A DNA stretch of 64,000 nucleotides from Omnitrophica WOR_2 bacterium RIFOXYA2_FULL_38_17. Lineage in GTDB: Bacteria; Omnitrophota; Gorgyraeia; Zapsychrales; Zapsychraceae. The notes beneath the pieces are model-generated. The model was not told where the DNA came from. It did not search any database and saw only the letters and a program-made list of their open reading frames with translations. How positions within the stretch are numbered: the stretch's first letter is position 1; the number at the start of each line of letters is the position of its first letter. Made by a program: the position numbers and the translations under genes. This document shows, piece after piece, positions 1,260-63,911 of this stretch. The stretch is taken from the NCBI GenBank assembly GCA_001805965.1, contig MHHG01000055.1, positions 3,680 through 67,679 on the forward strand. The letters run 5' to 3'.

Positions 1260-1293
1260 AAAACAGATCTACAAAATAACCAAACGCTTAAAG

Positions 1294-2687: not shown

Positions 2688-2691
2688 ATTA

Positions 2692-3351: not shown

Positions 3352-3366
3352 TAATTATCTATTCAA

Positions 3367-3408
3367 GAAAAAAAAGACCTTGTTCTTTAATATTCGAACA
3401 AGGCCTTA
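3367..3408 (-). terminator. Rho-independent terminator downstream of icd
   Basis: The minus strand reads AAGGCCTTGTTC-gaatattaaa-GAACAAGGTCTT followed by TTTTTTTTC. This is an 11-12 bp stem with one mismatch plus a U-tract, directly after the icd stop codon. Confidence 0.6.
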
Positions 3409-3423
3409 TTAAAATATTTATCA

Positions 3424-4629: not shown

Positions 4630-4721
4630 GTTTTTCTCATTATAGAAATAAAAGATACTCTATTTAATATTATTCTTAACTGGTCTTGATTTAAATAAAA
4701 CAAAGAATAGAAAAAAGAAGA

Positions 4722-5777: not shown

Positions 5778-5819
5778 TTTTATGCTCCTGATAAGATGAT
5801 TTATTTAGGTGAGTAGTTG

Positions 5820-6986: not shown

Positions 6987-6999
6987 AACAAGTTAGCCC

Positions 7000-13759: not shown

Positions 13760-13788
13760 TTATTACTTAACCTTTGTAAAATTAAAAA

Positions 13789-14433
13789 TTATTTTTTAAA
13801 CTTCAATCTACTTAATCCATCAAATGTTGCTTTCACAACATTAATTGGGTTATTAGATCTGTGGCATTTCGTCAAAATATTATGTATTCCTGCCCCGTCG
13901 CAAACAGCTCTTACCGGACCTGCTGCAATAACACCAGTTCCTTCAGATGCAGGCTTCAAAAGAACTCTAGCCCCTGAACACTGTCCTATTATTTCATGAG
14001 GGATCGTTGTCCCTTTCATCGGGACCTTGATCATGTTCTTTTTTGCTACGATCATAGCTTTTTTTATAGCTATAGCTACTTCCTTAGCTTTAGATAAACT
14101 ATACCCTACATTACCTTTTGCATCTCCCACAACTACTAGAGCACTAAATGATAATTTCTTTCCACCCTTTGTTACTTTTGTAATCCTGTTGATAGAAATG
14201 ACCTTTTCCATCATTTCAGAACTACCATAATCTTTTAATACTTCACTTATTTTTTTGACATCAATTGAATCATCCTTGGATAAGTCTATTTTGTCGTCAA
14301 AAACAGCTTCTTCAAAAACATCAACATCAACTGCATCAGCAATCTCGTGCTCAGCTTTTATTTCAACAGCATCATTATTAACTTTATCTTCTACTTCTTT
14401 TATTTCTTTATTTTCTTCGTTTGGCTTATTCAT
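13789..14433 (-). CDS. rpsE: 30S ribosomal protein S5 (with ~70-aa acidic N-terminal extension if the long start is used)
   Basis: The S5 core [29 protein letters not shown] is present. The long ORF starts 5 nt after the rplR stop. Confidence 0.9.
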
Positions 14434-14438
14434 AATAA

Positions 14439-14807
14439 TTAAAACTCCATTCCACCTTTGCGTAAAGACTCAGCAAAGGCCTTCACTCGACCATGATATA
14501 AATAACCACCTCTATCAAAACATACTTTCTTGATTCCTTTTTTCTGCGCTTCTGCTGCAAATGATTCACCCAGTAAAGATGCAGCATCAATATTCCCACC
14601 GTTTTTTATTTTGCCGCGCACTTCTTTATTCAATGTTGACATTCCAAATAGGACTTTACCGCTAGAATCATCAACAACTTGCACAAAAAAATTCTTCAAA
14701 CTTCGATGCACGCATAATCTTGGCTGTTCAGTTGTTCCAACAACTTTTTTGCGTGTTCTTTGATGCCTATAAACTCTTTTTAATTCTTTTAATTTTGTAT
14801 TATCCAT
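14439..14807 (-). CDS. rplR: 50S ribosomal protein L18
   Basis: The 122-aa ORF has the L18 core. Confidence 0.9.
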
Positions 14808-48444: not shown

Positions 48445-49860
48445 TTACAACTCAGAAGATACCTCAGGAGTGATAATAGTTGGCGTAATAAAGATCAACA
48501 AATCAGTTTTATCTACATCCTTAGATGTTTTGGTAAATAGCTTTCCCAATATCGGGATATCTCCTAAAAATGGCACCTTTTTCTTTACATCTACAGCTTT
48601 ATCCTTAACTAAACCGCCAATTACCAAAGTTTCTCCATCCTTTACCATTACTTTAGTAGAAGCTTGCTCAATGCTTAGTTTTGGAACTGCAGAACCACTT
48701 GCCGCATCTGTAACGTCACCTAAATTATCAGTTATACTTGGCTCAACATCAAGCGTAATAATCCCTGCAGCCAAGCTAACGTGCGGGGTAACTTTCAAAA
48801 CTATTCCTATCTTTTTATACTCCCAGCCTGATAACTGCCAACTTCCAGTTTCATCGTTAAAAAACTTCAATGGGTATGGGTGCTCCGTTCCCACATCAAT
48901 CCTTGCTTCATGATTATCCAACGTGACAATTCTAGGATTAGAAAGAATATTCGTATCAGTTCTTTCTGCTAACATTCTGAATACAGCTTGTAAATTAGCA
49001 AAACTAAGTGTTCCATTAGTAATTGCAGAAGCGGTTGATGTTACTCCGCCAGTATCTATATTGGGATTGATATATTTATTATCAATTACAGGAGGTGCGA
49101 ACGGAAATGTATGTGTTATGGAAGAGCCTGTTACACTGGCTTGCGTAGTCCATTCTATTCCTAGCTGTTCAGAATCATCTAAAACTGTCTCAATAATTTT
49201 ACTTTCAATTAAGACTTGTGGAGTAGTCGCATCCAAACCTTTTATAACCTTTGCGATTAAGACTAGCTTGCTTGCTGTATCAGTTACAATTAAAGTATTT
49301 GTTCTTTCATCAAAATTAACATTACCTCTTTCTGATTTCATTTTTTCAAGAGATTCAACGATCTCTGAAGCCCTGCCAAAATTAAGCATGAATATTTCTG
49401 TTTCTAAAGGCTCTTGTTCGGCAAGAAGCAATGAGTCCTCTCTTCTTTTCTTCATGTCTTCAATAGTAGTAACAACAATTATGTTGCCCTTTTGGTCATA
49501 CGCATATCCATATGTTTGCAAAATTACCTCAAGAGCCTGTTTCCAGGGAACATCCTTAAGCTGTATAGTTACAACGCCGATTACTTCAGGGCTCGTAACA
49601 ATATTTATACCGCTTTTAAAAGCAAGTATTTTCAAGACATTCCTGATATCGGCTTCTCGGAAATCCAAGCTTACGTCCCCTCCATCAGACATCATAACAT
49701 CATCTGCAGATTGAGAAGCTCCTTCAACTTCAGATCCAGCAACATTTTGTTTAGCAGGTATTTCTGATCCTTTTTGAGCAAAAACGCACTCAACTCCCAC
49801 AACGGAAATCATTATAAATATTCCTATGATTAGAAAAATCCCTATCTTTTTCCCAGACAT
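48445..49860 (-). CDS. pilQ: Type IV pilus secretin PilQ
   Basis: N-terminal signal/TM, N-domains and a C-terminal secretin domain (VPFLGDIPILGKLF). Confidence 0.85.
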   Translation of the reverse strand: MSGKKIGIFLIIGIFIMISVVGVECVFAQKGSEIPAKQNVAGSEVEGASQSADDVMMSDGGDVSLDFREADIRNVLKILAFKSGINIVTSPEVIGVVTIQLKDVPWKQALEVILQTYGYAYDQKGNIIVVTTIEDMKKRREDSLLLAEQEPLETEIFMLNFGRASEIVESLEKMKSERGNVNFDERTNTLIVTDTASKLVLIAKVIKGLDATTPQVLIESKIIETVLDDSEQLGIEWTTQASVTGSSITHTFPFAPPVIDNKYINPNIDTGGVTSTASAITNGTLSFANLQAVFRMLAERTDTNILSNPRIVTLDNHEARIDVGTEHPYPLKFFNDETGSWQLSGWEYKKIGIVLKVTPHVSLAAGIITLDVEPSITDNLGDVTDAASGSAVPKLSIEQASTKVMVKDGETLVIGGLVKDKAVDVKKKVPFLGDIPILGKLFTKTSKDVDKTDLLIFITPTIITPEVSSEL

Positions 49861-49861
49861 A

Positions 49862-50221
49862 TTATTCCTCCTTTTTTAACTGCAACTCAAAAATCTTGTT
49901 TCCCTTAATAAGATAGACCTTTTCACTTTTAATCTCATGAACAGTAAAGTCTCCTATCTTATCCTTAATCTTGACAATTTTACCGTTAATTATAACAAGA
50001 CTACTATCTCCATCACCTAACATCACACCCTCGAGAGATAGGTCAGAAATTGAAAGACTGTCATCAAAGTTCTCAATAATACCATCAGCGCTCACCAATG
50101 GCAACATCGGATCCCTTTTGCCCTGATCATCATATTTTAAAATATCTTCTTCGGAAAAAGAAACATTTACCGCAATAACGATCAGACAACAAACAATATT
50201 TATGATTTTAATTAACCGCAT
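49862..50221 (-). CDS. PilP-like pilus assembly protein (small secreted beta-domain protein)
   Basis: Signal peptide MRLIKIINIVCCLIVIAVNVSFS and a C-terminal pattern L..G...G......I.G..V..GD.I....V..I....V.L typical of PilP/GspC HR domains. It sits in the pilO-pilQ slot. Confidence 0.45.
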   Translation of the reverse strand: MRLIKIINIVCCLIVIAVNVSFSEEDILKYDDQGKRDPMLPLVSADGIIENFDDSLSISDLSLEGVMLGDGDSSLVIINGKIVKIKDKIGDFTVHEIKSEKVYLIKGNKIFELQLKKEE

Positions 50222-50232
50222 ACATTTTTTCC

Positions 50233-50835
50233 CTATTTTTTACCTTTTAACTCTTCATAAACAACAGCATCCAGTACAATCTCAACTGAATGTTTTTGCT
50301 CTCCCCTTGAAGATATAATGCCAAAAGAGCTGACTTTAAAAAATATGTCCCCGCGCTCAAGTTGGCTTAAAAATCTGCCAAAATCATGATAACCGCTTCT
50401 AGCCTTTATAAGTATAGGCAAACCATAATAACGCCTCTCATCATTCTCTAACAGGATTTTCTGATCTTGCACATCAGGCATGATCTGATCAATCTTAACT
50501 CCGTTATCATCAGCCATGCGAGAAATATTTTCCAGAATAAGAGGAACTTCCTCCTTGAATTTAAGCTTTGCATTTGATTTTGCAACATCCGCTCTTAATC
50601 TTTCAACTTGTACCTGATACTGTTTTGATCTTAAAATATCATCTTTAGCTTTGTTAATATCCTCGGAAAGCAAACGAATTTCCGGGCTTATCTTAGATAA
50701 AGAGGCAATCTGCGGCCTCATAAGAACAAAGTAATCTAAAAGGAAGACTGAAAATAATATGCCGCCCAAAATATAGTAGATAACTTTTTCATCTACACTT
50801 TCTATATAGGACGATATTTTGTTCTGCAATGTCAT
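50233..50835 (-). CDS. pilO: Type IV pilus assembly protein PilO-like
   Basis: Single N-terminal TM, coiled coil and C-terminal alpha/beta domain, in the position between pilN and pilP. Confidence 0.6.
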   Translation of the reverse strand: MTLQNKISSYIESVDEKVIYYILGGILFSVFLLDYFVLMRPQIASLSKISPEIRLLSEDINKAKDDILRSKQYQVQVERLRADVAKSNAKLKFKEEVPLILENISRMADDNGVKIDQIMPDVQDQKILLENDERRYYGLPILIKARSGYHDFGRFLSQLERGDIFFKVSSFGIISSRGEQKHSVEIVLDAVVYEELKGKK

Positions 50836-51428
50836 TATTTACCCACTCTAGACGTTATTAAAAAATCAGCAACATCTACCTTGTTAATCTTTCTCATTTG
50901 TATTGAACCTAACTCCAGATCCGTTAGGTCCGTTAAAAATTCTGCATCTTGTTTAAGATTTGCTGTAAATTTATGTACTCCTATCATCTCTTTATTCTGC
51001 CTGGAAATTGCACTACCCTCTACAAAAAAAGCATCTTCATTAAATGCTATCCTCCTCAACCAAACCCCCTTTGGAAGATTATCACTTAAAATATTCAGTT
51101 TCTGTGACCAAATAACCTTTTCCTCTTCCGTAAGTTTCTTTATTGCGCTTTGCTTGTTCTGAAGCATCCTAAGCTCACTAATAATAACATCAACTTTCTC
51201 TTTGTCAGGAACAATTCCTTCCCAAGATGCTTTTAATGTATTATGTTTTGCTAACTTAGAAACATTAATTGCAAGCAAAACAACATGCACAACAAATAGC
51301 AGTATAATCAGTCCTCCACCTAGCCCAATAACCACTTCCAAAGGCAGCTTAAATCCTCCCACGAAGAAATCCTTCTTCTTCTTTTTTCTTAAACGCATTG
51401 GAACTAAGTTTATATCAATTATATTCAT
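50835..51428 (-). CDS. pilN: Type IV pilus assembly protein PilN-like
   Basis: MNIIDINLVPMRLRKKKK then a TM helix, which is a PilN N-terminus. The start was placed at M9 of the ORF-track call. Confidence 0.6.
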   Translation of the reverse strand: MNIIDINLVPMRLRKKKKKDFFVGGFKLPLEVVIGLGGGLIILLFVVHVVLLAINVSKLAKHNTLKASWEGIVPDKEKVDVIISELRMLQNKQSAIKKLTEEEKVIWSQKLNILSDNLPKGVWLRRIAFNEDAFFVEGSAISRQNKEMIGVHKFTANLKQDAEFLTDLTDLELGSIQMRKINKVDVADFLITSRVGK

Positions 51429-52470
51429 ATAAAGCCAATCCAAAGGCAACACCTAAATTAAGGGCCTTTTTGTTAAGATCATCAACATCTATTCCTTTAG
51501 ACACTCCTAAAGCCTTAAGTGGATCCCACCTTTCAACTTGCATTTCTAAATTATCCCCTAAAACATCAACGATACCTTCTAATAAAGAGCCGCCCCCAGT
51601 TACTAATAATTTATCAACTTCTTTGCTTTTTTCCGTAGAAAAATAATCAATAGATAATCTTAATTCCTGGACAATATTCATAAGGGTCGATTCACAAGCA
51701 GCTTTTACTTCACTAACTCTTTTAGCTGGTTGACATTTTAATTTCTCAGCTTCTTCTAAACTAATGCCCAATGTATTGCTTATTCTCTTTGTAAAATCAG
51801 CACCTCCGACAAAAATATCTCGTGTAAATCTTGGTGATTTGTTAACAATGATAATAAACGTGCTAACAGACTCTCCTATATCCAACAATGCCACTGTTTG
51901 ATCTTTACCTTCATCTTCTTTTTCTAATGAAAAGTTCAAAGCATTGACCAATGCAGCTGGATTCAATCCAATAAAATCTGCCTGATATCCTAAGCTTGAA
52001 ATAAGCTGCATTCTCTGGTCAATCATCTCTTTCTTTGCAGCAGATGCCATAACAGCCATCTGCTTGCTCTTCTTATCACCATCCAGAATATAACAATCTG
52101 TATAAATTTGATCTTGCGAGAAAGGGAAATACTTATCAGCTTCTATAGAAAATGAGTTGCGCAAATCATCTATAAGCATTCTGGGCATATCTATATAACG
52201 TATCAGAGTCCCTTTTCCAAAAACAGCAGTATATATCGTATTTGGTGGATTCCTTAGTTGCGCGATTAATGTTTTTATTGCTTCGGCTATACCACTCTTT
52301 CTTGACGATTCAATTGCCCAGCTAACTAACTCATATTCATTATTCTCTTTCTTTATTTCAACTAACTTACAACTGTTTAAACCAATATCTATTCCAACAG
52401 CTGTACCCTTAGGCTTGTCAGGAAGAAATTTTTTTATTATGCCGAAATAATTATTTAGCAATGCATTCAT
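51415..52470 (-). CDS. pilM: Type IV pilus assembly ATPase-like protein PilM (actin fold)
   Basis: AVGIDIGLNSCKLVEI phosphate-1 motif and actin/FtsA-like fold. Confidence 0.85.
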   Translation of the reverse strand: MNALLNNYFGIIKKFLPDKPKGTAVGIDIGLNSCKLVEIKKENNEYELVSWAIESSRKSGIAEAIKTLIAQLRNPPNTIYTAVFGKGTLIRYIDMPRMLIDDLRNSFSIEADKYFPFSQDQIYTDCYILDGDKKSKQMAVMASAAKKEMIDQRMQLISSLGYQADFIGLNPAALVNALNFSLEKEDEGKDQTVALLDIGESVSTFIIIVNKSPRFTRDIFVGGADFTKRISNTLGISLEEAEKLKCQPAKRVSEVKAACESTLMNIVQELRLSIDYFSTEKSKEVDKLLVTGGGSLLEGIVDVLGDNLEMQVERWDPLKALGVSKGIDVDDLNKKALNLGVAFGLALYEYN

Positions 52471-52623
52471 CTTAACCCCAAACTTTAAATAATAGACATA
52501 TATTATATTCTAAATTAATATAATTAATTGTATTGTAAGGCAATCTTTCTATCAAGCAGTAATTCATAAATTATCACCAACCTTTCTTAAGAAAGACAAT
52601 AGCATTTCATTTCAAAATTTCAA

Positions 52624-52664
52624 TAAAAAAAGGAGAGGGCTTAATTAGCCCCCTCCTTTTAAAA
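52624..52664 (-). terminator. Rho-independent terminator downstream of pilA (bidirectional architecture)
   Basis: GGAGAGGGC-ttaatta-GCCCCCTCC (9-bp stem, one mismatch) is flanked by an A-run upstream and a T-run downstream on the plus strand. The minus strand shows hairpin plus TTTTTTT about 20 nt after the pilA stop. Confidence 0.7.
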
Positions 52665-52685
52665 CAACTTGTTCATCAAACCAAA

Positions 52686-53081
52686 TTATTGCTGACTTAA
52701 AACCCCACCAGTTGTAACTGTAAAATGTGTCGTTCCTGATGTTCCAAGAGTCATAGCATTTGCATCAAAGGTATAATAACCTGGAGCAAATGTACAGGCA
52801 TAAGTAAAACCTGATGTTGACTGACCACAATAAGCTGCATTTAGATAAGGTGGTGTTGCGCCGGTCAATGAAGCTTCATTTCCTGGATATACACCATTTG
52901 ATGATGTTTGAAACGTTTCTGCCGCTGTTGACATCGTTTTGAGCGTGCTCTGTGCTAGCGCATCATTTGCTGAGATCTTAGCTCTTAGCAAGTTTGGAAT
53001 AGCAATTGCTGCTAACAAAGCGATAATTGCGACTACGATCATAATTTCTACTAACGTAAAACCTTTTTGGCTCATTCTCAT
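52686..53081 (-). CDS. pilA: Type IVa major pilin (prepilin, class III signal peptide)
   Basis: MRMSQKG|FTLVEIMIVVAIIALLAAIAIPNL gives the G-1, F+1, E+5 prepilin peptidase/N-methylation motif. A C-terminal Cys pair suggests a D-region disulfide. GGAGG SD lies 6 nt upstream. Confidence 0.85.
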   Translation of the reverse strand: MRMSQKGFTLVEIMIVVAIIALLAAIAIPNLLRAKISANDALAQSTLKTMSTAAETFQTSSNGVYPGNEASLTGATPPYLNAAYCGQSTSGFTYACTFAPGYYTFDANAMTLGTSGTTHFTVTTGGVLSQQ

Positions 53082-53240
53082 GATACCCTCCTTCTGAGTT
53101 TGCGAGCTTAAAGTTTACATTTGCCGACCAAAGCTAAGAATATACCAGATATATATAAGAATAATTACATTTACATAATATCTTAGCCCAACTTCGCAAA
53201 CGACTAACTTTTAGCTCAGTTTAGTTTTAAACTTTGTTTG

Positions 53241-53270
53241 ATTCTACCACCTCCTCTCTTTCCTTGTCAA
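53241..53270 (-). promoter_or_regulatory. Candidate sigma70 promoter for pilA (long 5' UTR ~150 nt)
   Basis: The minus strand reads TTGACA, an 18-nt spacer, then TAGAAT. Confidence 0.35.
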
Positions 53271-53605
53271 TTCATTTATATACTCTTGCTTTGGCTGCTT
53301 TCGCACCAAAACAAAACATGGCTGAACAAAGACAGATTTTACCCACTCAATAATACCAACAATGGTTTTTTCCAATATGCGCATTTTTATCACAAGCACC
53401 TCTCAAAAAAAAATCCCACCCCATTATAAGGAGCAGGACTATTAGAATCCCTTTGTGGCAACTGGCTGTCCTATTTTCTCTTAGGACCCTATAGCTTTGT
53501 GCCCCATCCTTACGAATGGTTTACCATTTACACAACCAACCCAAACTTTCAGTTCAAGTATAACATCAAAAAAAATTATTGTCAAAAAAGAGGCATTTTA
53601 CAAAC

Positions 53606-54628
53606 TTACTTGTTTTTTATTGCCTCAATTTTTTTTTGAAAATCATACACTTTCTTTATTAATACCAAGTGTTCATTCTTGATCGCAGCCAAATTTTCAG
53701 TTAATTGACGCTCTTCAGCTTCTCCACCATCTAAATTCAATTTACTGTCCTTCAATTTCTCTTTAGCAATAGAAAGTACATTGTCAAGATTATCCTTTTG
53801 TTCATTTAAAGCCGCTATTTCCTTTAATAGCTCTTCTTTGCGACTTTCTCTTTCATTACTGACATTAGCAATTTCTTTTTGTATTTTGTCTTCTTCTCCT
53901 AAAATAATCTTAAGCTCGTCTTCAACTATCAACAATTGCTGCTTCAAAAGACTTCTTTTTTTACCGATTTCTTCTACTTCAGATACTGGTCGCATATTAG
54001 TCTCTGTAACTTTGGACAATTGTCTTTGCAATCCTTCAATCTCGTTTTCGCTTCTTTCGATTTGTTCAAGCACTTGTTTCTTAATACTGTCTTCTGTGCC
54101 TTTACTTTTTTTCATATCAAAATTATCAATCTTCATTTGAATATCAGCAATATCTTTACTGACTTTATCGATTGATTGCAGAACTTCTTTTTCTTTAACT
54201 TGCTTTACATCTAATTTCTTCTCTAAAATCTGTTGCTCTCTAACAATCTTACTAACATCATCAGTTAAGCTATTCGCATTTTTCTCAAAGAACATTAGCT
54301 CCTGTTCTTCAGCATCCATATCATCAAGGCTCGCGTTCTGTACTTTCCACTTCATTTTATCTTCTTCAAGACGTATTAACTCTGTTTTTAATGTCTTGAT
54401 ATTCTCACGAAGCTTTTCATTTTCAGAAACAAGCCATATATTCTTTTGTGCAACTTCTTGGGCGCTGTTTTTCAAACTTAACAAACTATACTCAAGAACT
54501 TTTCTTGCTGATAAATTAGCTCTTCTCTCTGCATGACAAAAATCGGCATTAACTTGAATAAATATTACAGTTAAAAATAAAGTTTTTACAATTGTCGTTC
54601 TACAAACAATCTTAGTTTTTTTAAACAT
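53606..54628 (-). CDS. Secreted long coiled-coil protein of unknown function (pil-locus associated)
   Basis: The 340-aa ORF has an N-terminal signal-like hydrophobic segment, then about 300 aa of E/K/L/Q-rich heptad-like sequence. I recognise no catalytic motifs. Confidence 0.5.
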   Translation of the reverse strand: MFKKTKIVCRTTIVKTLFLTVIFIQVNADFCHAERRANLSARKVLEYSLLSLKNSAQEVAQKNIWLVSENEKLRENIKTLKTELIRLEEDKMKWKVQNASLDDMDAEEQELMFFEKNANSLTDDVSKIVREQQILEKKLDVKQVKEKEVLQSIDKVSKDIADIQMKIDNFDMKKSKGTEDSIKKQVLEQIERSENEIEGLQRQLSKVTETNMRPVSEVEEIGKKRSLLKQQLLIVEDELKIILGEEDKIQKEIANVSNERESRKEELLKEIAALNEQKDNLDNVLSIAKEKLKDSKLNLDGGEAEERQLTENLAAIKNEHLVLIKKVYDFQKKIEAIKNK

Positions 54629-54651
54629 AAATTAAACCTTCATTAAAATAT

Positions 54652-55857
54652 TTAGACAATTTGTGTAATATTCAATATAGGCATAAATAAAGCAATAACA
54701 ATAAAACCAATCACTATACCAAGAACACCTATGATCAAAGGCTCAATAATACTGGTCAAACCTTCAACGGCTGCGTCAACTTGATCATCATAAAATTCAG
54801 CTATTTTTAAAAGCATTTTTTCCATCTGGCCCGATTTCTCGCCAATACCGATCATCCTAGTGACCATAGGCGGAAATACTTTACTTTTGCTTAATGGTGT
54901 TGCAATACTTTCACCTTCGCGTACACAATTTTTTACATCTTCGACAACATCTTCAAGGACAGTGTTTCCTATAGTCTTACCAACTATATCTAGAGATTCA
55001 AGAATCGGAACACCGCTTTGTATAAGGGTAGCCAGCGTTCGACTAAAACGGCTAATCGCAACTTTACAAAAAAGCTCGCCAAAAAGAGGCATGTTCAGAA
55101 CAGCCCCATCTATAACACGAGCGCCTTTTGCCGTTCTATACCATCTTCCGATAAGAAAAACTACAAAAACAAAAAAACCAACAATCCAAATCAAATAACT
55201 CTTGAGCCCTTCACTCACTCCAATTAGCATTTGAGTCATAGCCGGCAATTCCCTATCAAAAGAATCATAAATGCCCGCAAAAGTGGGAACAACCTTAACT
55301 AATAAAATAATCGTAATAATTGTCGCCATTGATACAATTACTGAAGGATATATCAATGCGGATTTGACTTTACGTTGCAGTTTAAGCGATTTCTCCATAT
55401 ATGTGGATATGCGGTCTAATACTTGACTTAAAACACCCCCAGTCTCTCCAACTCTTACCATGTTTACAAAAAGAGTGTCAAAAACACTAGGGTGTTTATT
55501 AAAAGCAGCAGAAAGGCTTGCTCCATGCTGAATATCATCATAAACATTTGTAAGAACCTTTTGAAACAGCGGATGAGAAACCTGGTCCTTCAAAGCATCA
55601 ATACCCTGAAGTATTGGTATGCCTGCATCAACCATTGTAGCTAATTGTCTTGTAAAAATGACGATCTCATCAGGCTTTACTTTTTTTGATTGAAAAGAAG
55701 AGCCAGTAATCTTGGAATCCTTTACTTCAACAACCGAAATAATAATAAGCTTCTTTTTCCTTAAAGCTTCAATGACTGATTCTTTATTATCCGCAGCAAT
55801 CTTTCCGGTAACATTCCCTGATTCTGCATTCTTTGCAACATATTTAAAAGTTGCCAT
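54652..55857 (-). CDS. pilC: Type IV pilus inner-membrane platform protein PilC (GspF family)
   Basis: The 401-aa ORF has two T2SSF repeats and three TM segments. Confidence 0.9.
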   Translation of the reverse strand: MATFKYVAKNAESGNVTGKIAADNKESVIEALRKKKLIIISVVEVKDSKITGSSFQSKKVKPDEIVIFTRQLATMVDAGIPILQGIDALKDQVSHPLFQKVLTNVYDDIQHGASLSAAFNKHPSVFDTLFVNMVRVGETGGVLSQVLDRISTYMEKSLKLQRKVKSALIYPSVIVSMATIITIILLVKVVPTFAGIYDSFDRELPAMTQMLIGVSEGLKSYLIWIVGFFVFVVFLIGRWYRTAKGARVIDGAVLNMPLFGELFCKVAISRFSRTLATLIQSGVPILESLDIVGKTIGNTVLEDVVEDVKNCVREGESIATPLSKSKVFPPMVTRMIGIGEKSGQMEKMLLKIAEFYDDQVDAAVEGLTSIIEPLIIGVLGIVIGFIVIALFMPILNITQIV

Positions 55858-55940: not shown

Positions 55941-56399
55941 TTAATTTCCACCATAAAGATTATTCAAAGCATGATCAATTTCCATTCTAGTGGAAATAAA
56001 AGGTACTATTTCACAACTGGTATCTTGCTTTAATTCCTGAAGAACCGAAAAATCCAAAGGATTCGACATAGCAATACTTAAAATATTACCAACACAATCT
56101 AAAGGGACAACACAATACTTAAAAGCTATCTGCCTTGGGATAATATTCAAGACTTCCTGCTTTATATCATACTGATCAATTGCAATATAAGGAAGCTTAC
56201 ACTGGGCAGACAAAGCAGCAACAACGTCTTTCTCGCTTACAAATCCCAGAGTTGTTAGGATCTCCCCGATGAATCTCTTATCTTTCTTTTGAATATTCAA
56301 AGCCCGACTAAGCTGCTTCCTAACAACCATCTTTCGATTAAGCAGAATCTCTCCTAAGCGACCTTTTTTATTGACAAATATTCCAGAATCAGCAACCAT
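55941..56399 (-). CDS. Standalone T2SSE_N / MshEN-like domain protein (PilB N-terminal domain only, 152 aa)
   Basis: Aligns to the N-domains of both downstream PilB paralogues (LPYIAIDQYDI...IPRQIAFKYCVVPL...LSIAMSNPLD). Tandem motifs RLGEILLNRKMVVRKQLSRALNIQ and FIGEILTTLGFVSEKDVVAALSAQ are present. Confidence 0.6.
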   Translation of the reverse strand: MVADSGIFVNKKGRLGEILLNRKMVVRKQLSRALNIQKKDKRFIGEILTTLGFVSEKDVVAALSAQCKLPYIAIDQYDIKQEVLNIIPRQIAFKYCVVPLDCVGNILSIAMSNPLDFSVLQELKQDTSCEIVPFISTRMEIDHALNNLYGGN

Positions 56400-56596: not shown

Positions 56597-58303
56597 TTAT
56601 TCATCCATAGCGACTCTTAAAACCTCTTCAAGAGTTATTAACCCAGAAACACATTTCTCGATAGCATCCTCCCAAATAGTCACCATTCCGTTAACCTCAC
56701 ACGCAAACCGTTTTATCTCATCGGATGAGCATCCCCTTAATAGCATCTCCTTGATCTCATCAGTTACCTCTAATACTTCCATCAAAGCCATTCTCCCAGA
56801 ATAGCCTGTACCATGACAAGCCTCACAACCTTTTCCATGATAGAAAACTGTATTGGGCTTGAATTTATAAGTCATCTTATCCAATACTTTCTTCGATATC
56901 TCAACTTTTTCTTTACAGCGTGTACAAATTTTCCTACATAGTCTTTGTGCATTTACCAGCACAAGGCTCGATGCAACCAAAAACGGCTCAACTCCCATAT
57001 CAACCAATCTTGTCAAAGTGCCGGCAGCATCATTTGTATGAAGGGTAGAAAAGACCAACTGCCCTGTTAATGATGCTTTCACTGCTATGTCAGCTGTTTC
57101 ATTATCACGAATCTCACCAACCATTACAATATCTGGGCTCTGTCGCAATATTGCCCTTAACCCCTCAGCAAAAGTCAATCCTATTTCAGGCCTAGCCTGA
57201 ATCTGTGTCAATCCCTCGATCAAATACTCAACCGGGTCCTCGACAGTAATGATGTTCTTATCCACTGTATTGAGCTCATTAATGATTGAGTATAAAGTTG
57301 TCGATTTGCCACTGCCCGTAGGGCCAGTGACCAAGAACATACCAAACGGTTTAACGATGCCATTCTTTAAAACAGCCAGAGACTTCTCAGAAATGCCTAA
57401 GCCATCAAGCCCAACAGTCAAATTACTTTTATCCAGAACACGCATGACAATTTTCTGCCCAAATGTTGTAGGCAATAAAGAAACGCGGAAATCAATTTCT
57501 TTTCCAGCGACTTTCATCTTAAAACGTCCGTCTTGAGGGACATAATTTGAAGTTATATCCAACCTGGACATTATCTTGATTCTTACGATAACGGCATTCT
57601 GGTTTTCCTTAGGCAAATTCAGGATATCTCTCAAAATACCATCTATTCTATAACGAACTCTGACGCCATCTTCCGCTGGTTCAATATGAATATCAGAAGC
57701 TTTCTGCCTTATTGCTTCTTTGACAATAAGATTGACCATTCGGATAACAGGGGCTTTCTCTCCGTCATCTGCAGGTCCACTGCTTCCATCTTCTTCTTGA
57801 TCCATGACTATTTCGAAATCATCTACCTGAATGTCCTGAGTAATATCAGTAACACTCACGCTTTCCGGAACGCCATAATAATTATCAATTGCCTTAATGA
57901 TCTCCGTATTTGTACTCATAACCACATCGATATCTTTGCCTGTGATACTTTTTAGGTCATCAGCGATAAAAACATCTAGCGGGTCTGCAAGCGCCACCGT
58001 AAGGGTGTTCTCAAGCAGTGAAAGAGGGATTATTTTATACTGCCTTGCTACCCGCTCTGGCACGATCTCTTGCAAATAAGGGTCGATCTTATATTTGCTT
58101 AAATTAATAAACGGGATATTTAGCTCTCTTACAAGAAGCATCAAAAGGTCGTCCTCCGCTATCAGCCCTTGTTCTATCAAAGCTTTATCAAGACCAATAT
58201 TCTTTCTCTTTTGCAATACAATAGCAGCATCAAGATCTTTTTTGCTGATCTGCTGAGTCTCAATAAGTGTATTCAAAATTTTATCTTTTAATGTCTTTGC
58301 CAC
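56597..58303 (-). CDS. pilB: Type IV pilus assembly ATPase PilB/GspE family, paralogue 1
   Basis: The 568-aa ORF has an N-terminal T2SSE_N domain, Walker A GPTGSGKST, Asp/His boxes and a tetracysteine CRKIC..C..C..CEACHGTG. It starts at a GTG with a 1-nt overlap onto the upstream stop. Confidence 0.9.
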   Translation of the reverse strand: MAKTLKDKILNTLIETQQISKKDLDAAIVLQKRKNIGLDKALIEQGLIAEDDLLMLLVRELNIPFINLSKYKIDPYLQEIVPERVARQYKIIPLSLLENTLTVALADPLDVFIADDLKSITGKDIDVVMSTNTEIIKAIDNYYGVPESVSVTDITQDIQVDDFEIVMDQEEDGSSGPADDGEKAPVIRMVNLIVKEAIRQKASDIHIEPAEDGVRVRYRIDGILRDILNLPKENQNAVIVRIKIMSRLDITSNYVPQDGRFKMKVAGKEIDFRVSLLPTTFGQKIVMRVLDKSNLTVGLDGLGISEKSLAVLKNGIVKPFGMFLVTGPTGSGKSTTLYSIINELNTVDKNIITVEDPVEYLIEGLTQIQARPEIGLTFAEGLRAILRQSPDIVMVGEIRDNETADIAVKASLTGQLVFSTLHTNDAAGTLTRLVDMGVEPFLVASSLVLVNAQRLCRKICTRCKEKVEISKKVLDKMTYKFKPNTVFYHGKGCEACHGTGYSGRMALMEVLEVTDEIKEMLLRGCSSDEIKRFACEVNGMVTIWEDAIEKCVSGLITLEEVLRVAMDE

Positions 58304-60072
58304 TACTTCTTCTTTTCCTCATCAGGTGATGTTAATCTCAAAACCTCTTCTATTGTTGTTAACCCATCTACTGCTTTCACCAAGCCATCTTCTCTCATAG
58401 TCCGCATACCTTCTTGACGTGCAACTTGTTTTATCTTTACTTCGCCTACCCGCGCCAAGACAGCCTCTTTCACTTTTTGGCTGAATACAAGGATTTCAGT
58501 GATACCAACCCGCCCCTTATAGCCAGTATTAAAACATTGCTTACATCCTTTTGGCCTCATAACTTCTATATTCTGTTTAGGATATAATTTATCAAGCCCA
58601 ACTTTTGAAGCTATCTCCGGAGTAACTATATAAGGCTCACAACATTTCGGGCAGACCTTTCTTAATAGCCTTTGGGCAATGATAGCCAACACAGAAGAAC
58701 ATATTAAAAATGGCTCAATACCCATATTCATCATACGGACTATTGAACCCGCAGCTGTTGTAGTGTGAAGAGAACTCAAAACAAGGTGTCCAGTCAAAGC
58801 AGCCTTAACCGCAATATCTAATGTTTCTTTGTCGCGGATCTCTCCTATCATGATAATATCCGGGTCTTGCCTGAGAATTGATCTTAGACTTGAAGAAAAA
58901 GTTAAGCCCATCTTTGCCTTTATATTAACTTGATTGACCCCTTTCATCTGGTACTCTACAGGGTCCTCAACCGTAACAATATTTTTTTCTGGAGAATCTA
59001 CATACTTTAGAATTGAATAAAGCGTTGTCGTCTTACCGCTTCCAGTGGGACCACAAGTTAAAATCAAGCCATGCGGCTTTACAGCGCAGTCCTTTAAGCG
59101 CTGCAAAGCAGTTGCTTCAAACCCTAAATTTTCAACATCAAGCACTGTTCCCTGCTGGTCCAAGACTCTCAACACAATTTTTTCGCCAACAGCAGTAGGC
59201 AAAACATTAACGCGAAAGTCAACCTCTCTGTCACCTGAAATTATCGTCTTAAACCTTCCATCTTGAGGCAACCTGTGTTCTGAAATATCTAAATTTGAAA
59301 TGACCTTTATTCTTGAAACCAATGGAAAATGCAACACTTTTGTCATTCGATCAATCTCTCGAATGACCCCATCAATCCTGTACCTGATGCGGACTGCTTT
59401 TTCTAATGGCTCTATGAACACATCGCTAGCTTTCGCAAACACTGCTTGCTGAATTATCGTGTCTGTTAACTTAATAATCGGCGCCTCGTCAGATATTGCC
59501 TCAACAGATGACTGCTCATCACTGTGTCCATCTTTAATTAATTCAAGGTCTTCAGTATCTCTAAAATCTTGAATGATCTCATCAAAGGTCTCATTATTTT
59601 TTTCCTGCTCTGGACTTTCCTGATCCTGCTCATCCTCATGCTTCAAATAATATTTCTCAATAGCTTTATGAATATCTGCAAACCTGCATATAATAGGAAT
59701 GATCATATAGCCTGTAAGAGCCTTAACATTATCTATTATAAATATGTTCAACGGATCCGCCATCGCGAGGGTCAGCTGATCTCCCAAGAGAGAAACAGGT
59801 ATAATTTGATATTTTAGTGCAATATCTTTTGGAATAGTTTGAATTACATCTGGCGAGATATTAAAACTAGCGATCTTAATTAAGGGAAGCTCAAGGCTTT
59901 CACTCAACACTTGGGTCAACTGGTCTTGACTCACAAAATTCATATCAACAAGTATCTTACTTAATTCTCCGCCTATTTTCTTTTGCTCAATTAACGCTTG
60001 CTCTAGCTCATTGGCGGTAATAAGTTCATCTCGAATAAGAATTTCTTTTAAGCGGTCTTTAAAAGATGCCAT
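58303..60072 (-). CDS. pilB: Type IV pilus assembly ATPase PilB/GspE family, paralogue 2
   Basis: The 589-aa ORF has an N-terminal T2SSE_N domain with RLKEILIRDELITANELEQALIEQ, an acidic linker, Walker A GPTGSGKTT and a tetracysteine CPKCC...CKQCFNTG. Confidence 0.9.
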   Translation of the reverse strand: MASFKDRLKEILIRDELITANELEQALIEQKKIGGELSKILVDMNFVSQDQLTQVLSESLELPLIKIASFNISPDVIQTIPKDIALKYQIIPVSLLGDQLTLAMADPLNIFIIDNVKALTGYMIIPIICRFADIHKAIEKYYLKHEDEQDQESPEQEKNNETFDEIIQDFRDTEDLELIKDGHSDEQSSVEAISDEAPIIKLTDTIIQQAVFAKASDVFIEPLEKAVRIRYRIDGVIREIDRMTKVLHFPLVSRIKVISNLDISEHRLPQDGRFKTIISGDREVDFRVNVLPTAVGEKIVLRVLDQQGTVLDVENLGFEATALQRLKDCAVKPHGLILTCGPTGSGKTTTLYSILKYVDSPEKNIVTVEDPVEYQMKGVNQVNIKAKMGLTFSSSLRSILRQDPDIIMIGEIRDKETLDIAVKAALTGHLVLSSLHTTTAAGSIVRMMNMGIEPFLICSSVLAIIAQRLLRKVCPKCCEPYIVTPEIASKVGLDKLYPKQNIEVMRPKGCKQCFNTGYKGRVGITEILVFSQKVKEAVLARVGEVKIKQVARQEGMRTMREDGLVKAVDGLTTIEEVLRLTSPDEEKKK

Positions 60073-60521
60073 TATTTTTGTTTATAGTATTTTTCAATGG
60101 ATTGTTTAATATCAGTAGTAGTGCTTACAAAGACCTGAACAATACATCCTGTCATAAGTTCAATATCTTCTGAAGCTTTTAGATTCAACGGGTCAGACAT
60201 TGCTATTGTTAAACTTTTACCTATCTTATCAATCGGAATAAGACAAAACTGCCTGCACACTTTTTCGGGGATCGCATTTATAACTTCATCATCAATTTCA
60301 TAATTCAGTAAGGGCAAATAAGGAAAGCCATACTGACATGTTATTGCCTGTGCAATATCTTTCTCTGTAGCAAAATTCAACTCAACAAGAACTTCACCTA
60401 TCAATCCACCATGCTTTTCCCTGTATTCCAGAGCCTCTTCTATTTGGGCATGATTTATAACTCCTCTTTCGATAAGAAGTTCTCCCAGTTTTTTATGTGT
60501 ATCTCTATTGAATTGTTTCAT
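60072..60521 (-). CDS. Standalone T2SSE_N / MshEN-like domain protein (149 aa)
   Basis: KLGELLIERGVINHAQIEEALEYR and LIGEVLVELNFATEKDIAQAITCQ tandem motifs, then PYLPLLNYEID...IPEKVCRQFCLIPI...LTIAMSDPLN matching PilB N-domains. ATGA overlap with pilB-2. Confidence 0.6.
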   Translation of the reverse strand: MKQFNRDTHKKLGELLIERGVINHAQIEEALEYREKHGGLIGEVLVELNFATEKDIAQAITCQYGFPYLPLLNYEIDDEVINAIPEKVCRQFCLIPIDKIGKSLTIAMSDPLNLKASEDIELMTGCIVQVFVSTTTDIKQSIEKYYKQK

Positions 60522-60700: not shown

Positions 60701-61069
60701 TTATCCGGTCAATCTTTTAATGCTGGAAAGCAGTTCCTCAGGATTGTAAGGCTTCATTAAATATTCATCAGCGCCCGCTTCTTTCCCCCAGAACTTGTCG
60801 CTCTCCGAAGTTTTAGCGGTTAAAAGTATAACCGGAATATGTGCTGTTTCAAGGCCATCTTTTATCATACGACAAACCTTATATCCGTTTGGAGCGGGCA
60901 TCATAACATCCAAAATTACCAGGTCTGGATGATATTCTTTGGTTAAACTTAAAGCCTCTTCGCCATTGGTTCCAGTGATTATTTCATATCCGTTCGCTTT
61001 TAAACGCAAACTTATCAGTTTAACAATCTCAGGCTCATCATCAATAATTAATATCTTTTTTCCCGACAT
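60701..61069 (-). CDS. Single-domain CheY-like response regulator (receiver only)
   Basis: ILIIDDEPEI...DLVILDVMMP...LLTAK receiver signature (phospho-acceptor Asp in LDVMMP). 122 aa, no output domain. Confidence 0.85.
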   Translation of the reverse strand: MSGKKILIIDDEPEIVKLISLRLKANGYEIITGTNGEEALSLTKEYHPDLVILDVMMPAPNGYKVCRMIKDGLETAHIPVILLTAKTSESDKFWGKEAGADEYLMKPYNPEELLSSIKRLTG

Positions 61070-61146: not shown

Positions 61147-61521
61147 TCATTTTTCCTTTAAAATATGTTCAATAATATCTATCCGGCTAACAATTCCAAC
61201 AACCTTTTTTTCCTTTATTACAGGCACTCTCTTTATATTCTTTTTAACCAGCAACCTACTGACATCTTCAACCAAATCATCCTCACTAATACTAATAACA
61301 TCCTTCGAATAAAACTCCTTAACGAGAGCATCCTTTGACCCAAGAAAATCATATGCAACTAAAAAATCCTTTTCAGTAACTACTCCGACAGCCTCCAGAT
61401 TATCATTAACAACTATTAGACCGCTTATATTATTTGACAAAAGAAGCCGCATCCCTTCTTCAATCTTAGCCTCTGGCTTTATAGTTACTACGTTAGTGGT
61501 CATAATATCCTTTGCTTGCAT
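61147..61521 (-). CDS. CBS-pair domain protein
   Basis: The 124-aa ORF has two CBS motifs (DIMTTNVVTIKPEAKIEEG... and VPVIKEKKVVGIVSRIDII). Confidence 0.8.
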   Translation of the reverse strand: MQAKDIMTTNVVTIKPEAKIEEGMRLLLSNNISGLIVVNDNLEAVGVVTEKDFLVAYDFLGSKDALVKEFYSKDVISISEDDLVEDVSRLLVKKNIKRVPVIKEKKVVGIVSRIDIIEHILKEK

Positions 61522-61577: not shown

Positions 61578-63911
61578 TTAGGTCAATCTTTCAATTAAAT
61601 CTATTACAACATTGATGTTGCCAGACTTTTCTATTATTGGGATTTCACCAAGTTCACCACATTCTTCCTTAACCTCACTTAAACGTTTATCTGTAAGAAC
61701 TATTATCGGGATCGCTGCGTACTGAGAATTCTGTTTTAATCTTCCCAAAACCTCATATCCGTTCATATTTGGCATGACAATATCAAGCAATATTAAATCT
61801 GTTTTTTTTGTTTTTAAATAATCCAGCGCCTCTTCACCATCAAAAACCTGTTCTGTAATAATGCCGTAGCGGCCCAATCTTGTTGAAAGCAATCTTCCGA
61901 TCTGCGGATGATCATCAACAATCAATACTTTTTTCTTTTTTTCGCATTCTTCTAAAGCCCTTATTGCTAATTCATTCTTATTCCGACCATCTTTTGGATG
62001 GAAAGCCAATCCAAACTTTACTTTTATCCCCAAGTCATCTTTCATCATGGCAATTCTCTCACGCAAAGCGCCCTTTATTTTCTCTAATAAGACCATCCCG
62101 CCTTTTTTATCTGTATCAGCAAGGGCAATATGAATTGTATCTTTATCATATAAGATATATTTATCTGTTGTCCTTGAAAGCGATCTTGACAATATTTCAA
62201 AAGCAATATTTATGATTTTATTAGCAAATGCTTCTCCATACTTGGTCATGACCATATCAATGCCCATAAAACGAGCAACAATAAAAACAGAATCCTTATT
62301 CTTTATTTTTGTCTCTGAAAATATCCAATCAACATCATGATCAAATTTTTGCTTTAATTTCAATTTGCTTGGAAGAGTAAAAAAGAAAGTTGCACCCTTA
62401 CCTGTCTCGCTCTCTGCCCAGATTTGCCCGTCATGAAGGTCAATTAAAGATTTGCTTATAGTCAAGCCTAAGCCCGTACCTTTTATTCCCGGGCCATGTA
62501 TTCTTCCAAATTGGGTAAATTTATCAAAAAGCTTTGGGATATTCTCCTTTTCAATCCCCAAACCCGTATCTGAAATCCTAAACAGGCATCCTCCATCCTG
62601 CTCATTGATCTCAATCTCTATTTCGCCACCTTCAGGTGTAAATTTATGAGCATTATTCAATAAATTTGTAACGACCTGTATTATTTTATCTTCATCAAGA
62701 AATATAAACATTTCCTTTTCTGGGAATATTGCTCTTATCTTTTGCTGCTTTGTATCTAAAACCTTTCTATATTCATCCGTCAATTTATTTATTATTGCTT
62801 TTAGGTCAACAATGGTCTTTCTAAGAGTGATCTCTCCGGATTCTATTTTAGAAACATCTAATAGATCATTCACAATTGTTTGTAACCTGTGAAGATTGTC
62901 CTTTGAAGCATTTAAAAGCTCTTTTTGCTGTTCATTAATTCCGCCAACAACGCCATCTAAAATAAGGTTTATGCACTCAGTTGATATCGCCAGCGGAGTC
63001 CTTAACTCATGGGAAACAGTGGAAACAAAATCAGATTTCAATTGATCTAATTTTTTTAGTTCCAAATTCTTTCTTTCAAGATTCTTATACAGATTCTTAA
63101 TTGATTCGTTAGTTTTTTGTAGCCCCCAGGATTGTTGTTCCAGCTTATCTCTAGCATTATCTAAATCTTTTTCAGCACTTTTTTTTGCTGTAATATCACT
63201 AAATGATTCGATACCGCCAATAATATGGCCCTCATCATTTTTTAAGATGTCAGAATTCTTAAGAATAGTTATTCTTTCACCATTTTTTCTCTTAATAGAA
63301 CACTCGGTCTCAACAATCGGCTTCTCTACATCATTACTATAAAGCCCGCAGTAAGACTCACAGGGATATTCAGCGAATATATCGCATTTTTTACCAATAA
63401 CCTCTTGGGCGGTATATCCTGTAAGCTCTTCGGCCTTTTTATTCCAGCCAGTTACAACTTTGTTTTCATCAACAGTAAATACAGCGCTCGGAACAACTCT
63501 AAAAATGCGCTCCAAATCCTTATTTGCTTTAATTACAGCTTCCTCAGCATGCTTATACACTGTTATGTCGCTCATTAAATGAATTGAGCCTAATAAATCT
63601 TTATTATCATCAAAAAGAGGTGCCGTTCGGATAAAGAACCATTTATTAAAAATAGGCTCCCAATGCTCCTTTTGTTCATATTTTTTTGAGTCCTTTAGAA
63701 CACAGTATGGACAATCAGATATAGGCTGGTTCTTAGAATGTATGACCTCATAACATTTCTTGTTCAATAAAGCACTTTCATCCTTGCCAATAAACTTTAA
63801 AAAAGCCTTGTTCACTTTCTTTATTCCATTCTCTAGATCAAGAATAAAGATGAAATCTTCTAAAACATCAAAAGCTGGAGACCAAAACCGATTATAATCA
63901 AGATTTTTCAT
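61578..63911 (-). CDS. Hybrid sensor histidine kinase: two PAS domains, HisKA-HATPase, degenerate GGDEF-like domain, C-terminal receiver
   Basis: H-box VSHELRTPL; G-boxes ISDTGLGI and GTGLGLTI. The inter-domain segment IDMVMTKYGEAFANKII...RTTDKYILYDKDTIHIALADTD aligns to GGDEF, with GGDEF replaced by DKDTI and RxxD five residues upstream. C-terminal VLIVDDHP...LLDIVMP receiver. Confidence 0.8.
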   Translation of the reverse strand: MKNLDYNRFWSPAFDVLEDFIFILDLENGIKKVNKAFLKFIGKDESALLNKKCYEVIHSKNQPISDCPYCVLKDSKKYEQKEHWEPIFNKWFFIRTAPLFDDNKDLLGSIHLMSDITVYKHAEEAVIKANKDLERIFRVVPSAVFTVDENKVVTGWNKKAEELTGYTAQEVIGKKCDIFAEYPCESYCGLYSNDVEKPIVETECSIKRKNGERITILKNSDILKNDEGHIIGGIESFSDITAKKSAEKDLDNARDKLEQQSWGLQKTNESIKNLYKNLERKNLELKKLDQLKSDFVSTVSHELRTPLAISTECINLILDGVVGGINEQQKELLNASKDNLHRLQTIVNDLLDVSKIESGEITLRKTIVDLKAIINKLTDEYRKVLDTKQQKIRAIFPEKEMFIFLDEDKIIQVVTNLLNNAHKFTPEGGEIEIEINEQDGGCLFRISDTGLGIEKENIPKLFDKFTQFGRIHGPGIKGTGLGLTISKSLIDLHDGQIWAESETGKGATFFFTLPSKLKLKQKFDHDVDWIFSETKIKNKDSVFIVARFMGIDMVMTKYGEAFANKIINIAFEILSRSLSRTTDKYILYDKDTIHIALADTDKKGGMVLLEKIKGALRERIAMMKDDLGIKVKFGLAFHPKDGRNKNELAIRALEECEKKKKVLIVDDHPQIGRLLSTRLGRYGIITEQVFDGEEALDYLKTKKTDLILLDIVMPNMNGYEVLGRLKQNSQYAAIPIIVLTDKRLSEVKEECGELGEIPIIEKSGNINVVIDLIERLT

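Follow-up and report, generated by a model that had tools for sequence, protein, structure and literature searches.

A hybrid histidine kinase of Omnitrophota with an internal, degenerate GGDEF domain: a candidate cyclic di-GMP receptor beside a pilus gene cluster

The window analyzed here is a stretch of 64,000 nucleotides from Omnitrophica WOR_2 bacterium RIFOXYA2_FULL_38_17 (assembly GCA_001805965.1, contig MHHG01000055.1, positions 3,680 to 67,679), which carries on its minus strand, at 61578..63911, an open reading frame (ORF) of 777 amino acids (aa) with an ATG start. The encoded protein is a cytoplasmic hybrid sensor histidine kinase (HK) with the domain order PAS-PAS-HisKA-HATPase_c-dGGDEF-REC, in which dGGDEF is a degenerate GGDEF-fold domain and REC a receiver. 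Pfam profiles matched two PAS domains, HisKA (residues 292–359), HATPase_c (residues 406–515, 102.5 bits), GGDEF (residues 537–661), and Response_reg (residues 662–772, 77.4 bits). In window coordinates, all on the minus strand, PAS1 (residues 10–125) occupies 63537..63884, PAS2 (residues 126–250) 63162..63536, the HisKA or dimerization and histidine phosphotransfer (DHp) domain 62835..63038, HATPase_c 62367..62696, the central GGDEF-fold domain (residues 516–661) 61929..62366, and the C-terminal receiver 61596..61928. All of the residues of a hybrid kinase are intact, including the phospho-acceptor H301 within HELRTP, the N, G1, and G2 boxes (NLLNNAHKF, DTGLGI, and GTGLGL), and, in the receiver, D666/D667, the phospho-acceptor D710 (within LILLDIVMP), T739, and K759. 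As judged by inspection of the sequence, the N-terminus opens straight into PAS1 without an apparent transmembrane segment. Because the phosphorelay residues are present and no such segment is apparent at the N-terminus, the hybrid kinase is apparently functional and soluble. The strings singled out by the initial annotation lie at residues 53–58 (CYEVIH), 67–70 (CPYC), 176–191 (CDIFAEYPCESYCGLY), 580–583 (RTTD), and 589–593 (DKDTI).

No curated NCBIfam equivalog claims the kinase, with every full-length match falling far under its cutoff. Proteins of the same length (777 aa) occur in public metagenomes, including one that is near-identical (P0001), one at 85% identity (P0002, Candidatus Omnitrophica), and one at 72% (P0003). 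The closest named genome is a marine metagenome-assembled genome of Candidatus Omnitrophota (locus L006) with an orthologue at 84% identity; a single-protein scan of a collection of genome contigs returned this one true orthologue and four unrelated PAS kinases. A scan for promoters and terminators was uninformative, as the sole terminator-like site lies inside the kinase ORF and the number of sites found was below the shuffle expectation.

On profile matches and a structural model, residues 516–661 are a GGDEF-fold domain and a member of the GGDEF superfamily. Within the full protein, the Pfam GGDEF profile (PF00990), whose gathering cutoff is 23.8 bits, scored 24.8 bits, with profile positions 29–156 of 161 matched, while the isolated segment scored 28.4 bits. 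Searched against PDB sequences with phmmer, the top matches were all diguanylate cyclases, the best being the GGDEF domain 4URG of Thermotoga maritima (E = 1.3e-4). With the segment alone as query, an exhaustive phmmer search of 1.84 billion cluster representatives returned 39 matches at E ≤ 1e-3; of the 30 new ones among them, 13 have a true GGDEF or GGEEF signature, proteins of this kind being reached at E of about 1e-4. Two strong matches, P0121 (5e-12) and P0124 (8e-9), are immunoglobulin-repeat proteins and were discarded as repeat-driven artefacts. An AlphaFold2 model of the domain, built on a family alignment of 58 sequences (alignment A1), reached a mean predicted local distance difference test (pLDDT) of 90.4 and a predicted template modelling score (pTM) of 0.85, with a long helix α0 followed by β1-α1-α2-β2-β3-α3-β4-α4. 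Foldseek comparison of this model to the PDB placed GGDEF domains in all of the top 50 positions (best, 4URQ, E = 2.5e-9, template modelling score [TM] 0.79; TM up to 0.80), with GcbC, WspR, PleD (2WB4), DgcB, 3BRE, and 3I5C among them. The initial annotation had placed a GGDEF-type segment between HATPase_c and the receiver, and both the PF00990 profile scan and the structure prediction, together with phmmer and Foldseek, bear this out. A single-sequence AlphaFold2 run on the full 777 aa was unusable (pLDDT 35). Two homology searches were empty: a word-indexed search with the 146-aa segment alone gave no match, the family being recovered through the full-length query and local hidden Markov model (HMM) work, and a search with alignment A1 gave nothing at E ≤ 1e-5 despite known members in the database, which was taken as a technical null.

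The residues of a cyclase active site (A-site) are missing from the domain. In the phmmer alignment to the Thermotoga cyclase 4URG, Y588 and the following DKDTI (62133..62147, minus strand) sit on YGGDEF at the active-site hairpin, R547 takes the position of the metal-binding Asp, and M555 and T556 those of the guanine-binding Asn and Asp. Since every catalytic, metal-binding, and guanine-binding residue has been replaced, the domain is predicted to be unable to make cyclic di-GMP (c-di-GMP). The loss is not confined to this protein. When 110 related domains from homologues were aligned to the family HMM, 96 lacked any G[GAS][DE]EF and 14 were canonical, and columns were then ranked by information content (143 columns) over 89 non-redundant degenerate domains, mostly from kinases of the Omnitrophota. 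Four of the five signature columns rank 57–136, the column of the hydrophobic I593 ranks 28, and those of the metal and guanine ligands fall at ranks 89–126, with no conserved acidic residue in any hairpin column. Judged by these residues, the central domain is catalytically dead throughout the family. For this kinase that agrees with the initial annotation, which had noted the replacement of the signature by DKDTI; the metal and guanine ligands are lost as well, and the signature is unconserved across the 96 relatives.

That the domain might nonetheless be an active, unusual diguanylate cyclase has its Pfam GGDEF membership in its favor, as well as the NCBI name ‘diguanylate cyclase’ carried by two family members, P0063 and P0085. 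The signature of both of these proteins is fully degenerate, such names for family members are likely a systematic misannotation, and, beyond the replaced ligands of this kinase and the absence of G[GAS][DE]EF from all 96 family domains, the first 28 positions of the Pfam GGDEF profile are unmatched in the kinase. Activity of this kind therefore has a vanishingly small probability, and both an active cyclase and an A-site sensor of GTP were rejected because all of the A-site residues are lost and unconserved.

A different part of the fold has been kept. RTTD (R580–D583; 62163..62174, minus strand), the putative primary inhibitory site (I-site) of the form RxxD, lies in the modelled loop ahead of strand β2, aligns to the I-site RRSD of 4URG, and, in the family alignment, falls in register with the RxxD of all canonical cyclases (for example, RKSDIVARYGGEEF and RTTDTPARYGGDEF). 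The gap between RTTD and the signature position D589 is exactly five residues (KYILY), and a basic residue, K611 (62079..62081, minus strand), follows R580 by 31 residues in helix α3. The same geometry occurs in SgmT, a hybrid kinase of Myxococcus xanthus that binds c-di-GMP through the I-site of a degenerate GGDEF domain (signature GGGVF), where R763HPD precedes G772GGVF by the same five residues and R794, 31 residues after R763, is part of a secondary c-di-GMP site (PMC3509222). The initial annotation had likened the placement of RTTD to the I-site of PleD-type cyclases, and the likeness holds in the orthologues, with RTTD in P0002 and RSID in P0003.

Across the degenerate domains, the D583 column is occupied by Asp in 81 of 87 sequences (93%; rank 3 of 143), the R580 column by 58 Arg, 8 Lys, and 6 His of 87 (Arg, 67%; rank 16), and position 611 by 55 Arg and 22 Lys of 89 (77 basic residues, 87%; rank 12). 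A full RxxD is present in 32 of 49 proteins of the HK-dGGDEF-REC type and in 19 of 31 proteins of the HK-dGGDEF type, in which the domain is the last one, or about 65% of the wider family, so that the pattern is kept in both of the divergent subfamilies. Members of alignment A1 are only 20–30% identical to one another. The kinase thus has the sequence features of an I-site receptor GGDEF domain of the PopA or SgmT type, namely a degenerate A-site, an RxxD at five residues, and a basic residue at +31, and an A-site that has been randomized while the I-site is kept across divergent sequences is what would be expected of a receptor, though it is not proof of one. The alternative is that the dead domain binds no nucleotide and acts as a structural spacer or a module for dimerization or docking, with RxxD and the basic residues serving the fold or an interdomain contact. 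Core motifs (LPxT, GxAxYP, L648, and A652) are at least as conserved as the I-site, and the very short, conserved linker of about five residues that joins the domain to the receiver (ExxRKKxxLxVD, or ERKKKxLxVD) would suit a rigid architectural role. Under that alternative the free drift of the A-site is set against I-site positions that still rank 3rd, 12th, and 16th of 143 at 20–30% identity, and it is considered unlikely, though well within reason.

The same domain with the same pattern is found in about 80 kinases, mostly from Omnitrophota, an uncultured phylum. Degenerate GGDEF domains also occur in other arrangements, including a 1274-aa protein (P0143) with seven tandem GGDEF domains, mostly degenerate and one of them GGEEF, and a 568-aa protein (P0130) in which two degenerate GGDEF domains, each with RxxD, are followed by an HD domain of the HD-GYP type. 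GGDEF and PilZ genes have been reported from across the Omnitrophota in a preprint (bioRxiv 10.1101/2023.11.21.568195), and intact motifs make it clear that predicted-active cyclases exist in the phylum. The clusters of the closest canonical GGDEF proteins led to Desulfobulbaceae and Chloroflexota and were uninformative on the cyclases of Omnitrophota.

Both PAS domains belong to subfamilies that are frequent among Omnitrophota kinases and carry conserved Cys and His residues. In PAS1-type domains of homologues, C53, H58, C67, and H111 are each present in 38 of 38 sequences, giving a family motif K-C-[YF]-E-x-x-H-x8-C-P ... H (ligand-like stretch at 63579–63755, minus strand), while C70 is present in 4 of 38. 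In PAS2, the pattern C176-x7-C184-x3-C188-x15-C204 (63300–63386, minus strand) has each Cys in 30–37 of 48 matched domains (the others are PAS domains of different types), and almost all of the close relatives have all four. No solved structure carries the Cys/His pattern of PAS1 or of PAS2, and the motifs are absent from distant PAS kinases of Methanolobus, Brocadiaceae, and Myxococcaceae. Coordination of the NreB type was rejected, as the spacing of its iron-sulfur (Fe-S) PAS domain, C59/C62/C74/C77 (C-x2-C-x11-C-x2-C), fits neither the C-x7-C-x3-C-x15-C of PAS2 nor the C-x4-H-x8-C...H of PAS1. A closer parallel to PAS2 is the PAS domain of OrpR from Desulfovibrio vulgaris, in which C52, C61, and C65 (C-x8-C-x3-C) hold a redox-sensing [4Fe-4S] cluster (PMC8359166). 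The likeness is one of cysteine spacing, with OrpR taken from its published description, and the first of the two spacings is one residue off; PAS2 further adds a fourth conserved Cys (C204), and OrpR is a sigma-54 activator rather than a kinase. The source organism is likely anaerobic. From conservation and, for PAS2, the OrpR analogy, a metal or Fe-S cofactor in PAS2 is a reasonable inference, and a Cys2His2 metal site in PAS1 is likewise reasonable. The initial annotation had proposed cysteine clusters in the two PAS domains and a metal or redox input through them. The cysteines are strongly conserved and OrpR offers a precedent for the input, but the ligand set had to be corrected, with C70 of CPYC dropped and H58, H111, and C204 added. 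As candidate metal or Fe-S sensors, the two PAS subfamilies would be worth expressing in their own right.

The kinase gene stands first in a conserved cluster of regulatory and type IV pilus genes. The genes that follow the kinase on the minus strand encode, in order, a CBS-pair protein directly downstream (124 aa; 61147..61521), a single-domain response regulator that is likely its phosphotransfer partner (122 aa; 60701..61069), a stand-alone MshEN protein (149 aa; 60072..60521), a PilB/GspE-type ATPase with an N-terminal MshEN domain (589 aa; 58303..60072; best full-length match TIGR02538 PilB, sub-cutoff), a second PilB/GspE-type ATPase (568 aa; 56597..58303), and a second stand-alone MshEN protein (152 aa; 55941..56399). 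These are followed at 48445..55857 (minus strand) by a type IV pilus or type II secretion-like set consisting of T2SSF (PilC), a 340-aa protein of no recognized family, a pilin, PilM, PilN, PilO, a 119-aa protein, and a secretin. Encoded between PilC and the pilin, the 340-aa protein (53606–54628, minus strand) belongs to no Pfam family and has a weak, coiled-coil-like match to SMC; a gene of the same length, also without a Pfam match, occupies the equivalent position at locus L001. The strand bias of the window is unusually uniform over 64 kb, with 69 of 70 ORFs of at least 90 aa on the minus strand, including ribosomal protein operons, rpoB/rpoC, EF-Tu/EF-G, and the whole pilus cluster, and a GC skew of −0.18 to −0.33 in every 2-kb block from 1 to 64000.

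In the MshEN c-di-GMP site, a 5-residue spacer connects two motifs of 24 residues each (PMC5013675), and in all four MshEN proteins of the window the best-scoring pair of motifs lies 29 residues apart. The curated NCBIfam model of the c-di-GMP-binding MshEN motif, NF053729 (cutoff 38 bits), was passed by three of the four: the stand-alone proteins (58.7 bits for the 149-aa and 54.7 bits for the 152-aa protein) and the 589-aa ATPase (48.5 bits). The 568-aa ATPase fell below it (26.1 bits), and both ATPases lack the motif glycines in the first MshEN repeat. Because one ATPase passes the model and the other fails, the pair suggests one motor that would respond to the messenger and one that would not. 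The two stand-alone MshEN proteins bracket the tandem ATPases, a four-gene arrangement also seen at L001, and could serve as c-di-GMP adaptors for them. In comparison to the classical receptors MshE and PilB (PMC5013675), the neighboring proteins share the tandem 24-residue motif, while the kinase itself is not a receptor of that class; unlike in the classical arrangement, stand-alone MshEN proteins of ~150 aa are here paired with two tandem ATPases.

Ten loci with a kinase of the family, the window included, were compared. A c-di-GMP-related gene lies within 8–10 kb of the kinase in nine of them (the window, L001–L004, and L011–L014), the locus of P0025 being the only one without such a neighbor. 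One or two single-domain receiver genes follow the kinase in all ten (one to three for P0010, P0013, and P0004). The gene order at L001, the locus of an orthologue at around 72% identity, is identical to that of the window, and pilus clusters with MshEN-T2SSE genes are present in the window and in L001–L004. Around P0010, P0013, and P0004, which are 34–50% identical to the query, the kinase and receiver gene(s) are again followed by MshEN-T2SSE, T2SSF, pilins, and PilMNO. At L003, a complete Che cluster (86–7596; CheW, methyl-accepting chemotaxis protein, CheA-REC, CheB, CheW, and CheR with tetratricopeptide repeats) stands immediately upstream of the receiver, kinase, and pilus genes and is reminiscent of pilus control of the Pil-Chp or Frz type.

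The remaining loci differ in the kind of c-di-GMP-related gene. P0006 (L011) is followed by genes for a CBS protein and for receivers and by a REC-EAL gene (13671–14801) in which a simple pattern scan found neither E[AVGL]LxR nor DDFGTG; its product may be a degenerate EAL protein acting as a receptor rather than a phosphodiesterase. P0056 (L012) has a nearby GAF-HD-GYP gene with HHEK..GYP, and a gene adjoining P0050 (L013) gives a weak PilZ match. At the locus of P0085 (L014; Candidatus Omnitrophica), two genes at 5087–7415, directly upstream of a receiver gene and the dead-GGDEF kinase, encode cyclases in which DxDxFK..ND and GGEEF are intact; one is a GAF-GGDEF protein and the other has an RxxD of its own, and L014 is a putative compact producer-receptor module. 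Neighbors related to c-di-GMP at nine of ten loci would be unexpected if the central domain were a purely structural module.

In four loci, the gene directly after that of the kinase encodes a CBS-pair protein of ~125 aa: the window (61147–61521), L001 (12394–12771), L004 (3996–4403), and L011 (12062–12439). As it is kept beside divergent kinases of the family, its conservation suggests that the CBS protein is a functional partner, possibly one that senses a nucleotide. CBS folds often bind adenine nucleotides. This conserved partner, whose similarity to the c-di-AMP-binding CbpB is weak and well under the cutoff, would suit a central domain that is a receptor for another ligand (3’3’-cGAMP, c-di-AMP, pGpG, or GTP, the last of which some degenerate GGDEF domains sense), as would the altered I-site of this kinase, with Lys at 611 and Thr-Thr inside RxxD, and the His or Lys in place of the I-site Arg in some members. 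Sensing of GTP, though, needs the A-site, which is here wholly degenerate and unconserved, and the receptors and enzymes encoded nearby all belong to the c-di-GMP type (MshEN model, GGEEF, HD-GYP, and PilZ). We know of no I-site that has been shown to prefer another dinucleotide, and a different ligand is held to be improbable.

Few histidine kinases are known to read c-di-GMP directly, and they do so in different ways: SgmT through a GGDEF I-site, ShkA through a pseudo-receiver, and CckA through its catalytic domain. [quoted passage not shown] The Omnitrophota kinase resembles it in the RxxD five residues upstream of the signature, the basic residue at +31, a lineage-wide conservation, and a link to type IV pili. 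The order of domains is different, GAF-HK-REC-GGDEF in SgmT, with the GGDEF domain C-terminal, versus PAS-PAS-HK-GGDEF-REC, with the domain internal, and so is the extent of decay, the A-site of SgmT being mildly degenerate (GGGVF) whereas that of the Omnitrophota kinase reads DKDTI and has lost its metal and guanine ligands too. No DigR-type or other DNA-binding regulator was found near the kinase in the window. As the two proteins differ in domain order, sensor domains, and partner, the kinase is not an SgmT orthologue; the phyla differ as well, and binding has been demonstrated for SgmT, to which the Omnitrophota kinase is likened by its sequence.

Other systems share parts of this design. 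In ShkA of Caulobacter crescentus, a central pseudo-receiver binds c-di-GMP and thereby frees the terminal receiver (bioRxiv 10.1101/675454; PMC7010744). The Omnitrophota kinase follows the same layout, DHp followed by the catalytic domain, a central non-catalytic domain, and REC, with the putative receptor domain in the same place. Its central domain has a GGDEF fold rather than that of a pseudo-receiver, so the kinase is not of the ShkA type; the binding site is unrelated, and the likeness is architectural and possibly mechanistic rather than ancestral. PopA of Caulobacter and PelD of Pseudomonas are likewise receptors built on a GGDEF fold whose A-site is dead, acting through RxxD and a secondary basic residue, but PopA is REC-REC-GGDEF and PelD a membrane GAF-GGDEF protein, neither being a kinase; the comparison draws in part on the summary in PMC3509222 and is one of descriptions rather than of sequences. 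The cyclases PleD and WspR have the same fold, an RxxD before strand β2, and a basic residue in helix α3 (R390 in PleD), with an active GG(D/E)EF and the order REC-GGDEF compared to the destroyed A-site and GGDEF-REC order of the Omnitrophota kinase. A literature search found no published kinase in which a dead GGDEF domain is internal.

Taken together, the sequence evidence leads us to lean, by a modest degree of belief, towards the central dead GGDEF domain being a c-di-GMP receptor that tunes a pilus-control phosphorelay. In such a mechanism, c-di-GMP would bind the I-site of the central domain; given the position of the domain between the catalytic domain and the receiver, and its short linker, binding would most likely shift the access of the receiver to phospho-H301. 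The ligand might either immobilize the domains, as in the product inhibition of PleD, or free them, as in ShkA, or c-di-GMP might instead relocalize the kinase, as in SgmT. The phosphoryl group would then pass to the downstream 122-aa receiver, which in its phosphorylated form would modulate the MshEN-bearing PilB-type ATPases, so that c-di-GMP would influence the pilus machine at two levels, with PAS1 and PAS2 supplying a redox or metal input.

Several observations weigh against a receptor. The I-site Arg is absent from about one third of family members, and the secondary-site residue in this kinase is Lys rather than Arg. Among the 14 canonical control domains, 12 have RxxD and 13 a basic residue in the 611 column; as D583 and the basic residue at 611 are thus conserved in catalytic GGDEF domains too, their conservation alone may be structural. 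The full-protein Pfam GGDEF score is just 1 bit over its threshold. MshEN pilus ATPases are common in the phylum, which weakens the argument from the neighborhood, and no intact cyclase gene was found within the 64-kb window or at loci L001–L006. In vitro, c-di-GMP left the autophosphorylation and phosphotransfer of SgmT unchanged and affected its localization alone (PMC3509222), so that an effect on the phosphorelay of the Omnitrophota kinase is an extrapolation. The missing Arg and the generic Asp and basic residue also speak for a spacer or docking module, as does the lack of a phenotype upon deletion of the GGDEF domain of SgmT (PMC3509222). Of the c-di-GMP receptor predicted by the initial annotation, then, the retained I-site stands and the neighborhood favors a link to c-di-GMP, while an Arg in only about two thirds of members, an Asp that is generic, and a Lys at 611 leave the prediction qualified.

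The principle of a degenerate GGDEF domain as a c-di-GMP receptor in a hybrid kinase was already established in 2012, and a receptor in the central domain would not surprise a specialist. What is new is where the domain is inserted, how far it has decayed, how large the family is, the phylum, and its coupling to MshEN pilus machines. The putative receptor is placed exactly where His-to-Asp transfer could be gated. A broader and more doubtful proposal is that, in a family of hybrid kinases found across the Omnitrophota, a wholly decayed GGDEF domain placed between catalytic domain and receiver acts as a c-di-GMP gate on intramolecular phosphotransfer, a functional counterpart of the ShkA pseudo-receiver with another fold. 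In the source organism, this gate would be combined with Fe-S or metal sensing by PAS domains upstream and with MshEN ATPases and stand-alone MshEN adaptors downstream, such that c-di-GMP and redox state would jointly set pilus extension at two levels, possibly as part of the attachment or predatory lifestyle proposed for the phylum. If binding is confirmed, the database names ‘diguanylate cyclase’ for these kinases would be corrected, the family would represent a second, independent solution for the c-di-GMP gating of hybrid kinases, and it would open a first way into how a second messenger controls the pili of Omnitrophota.

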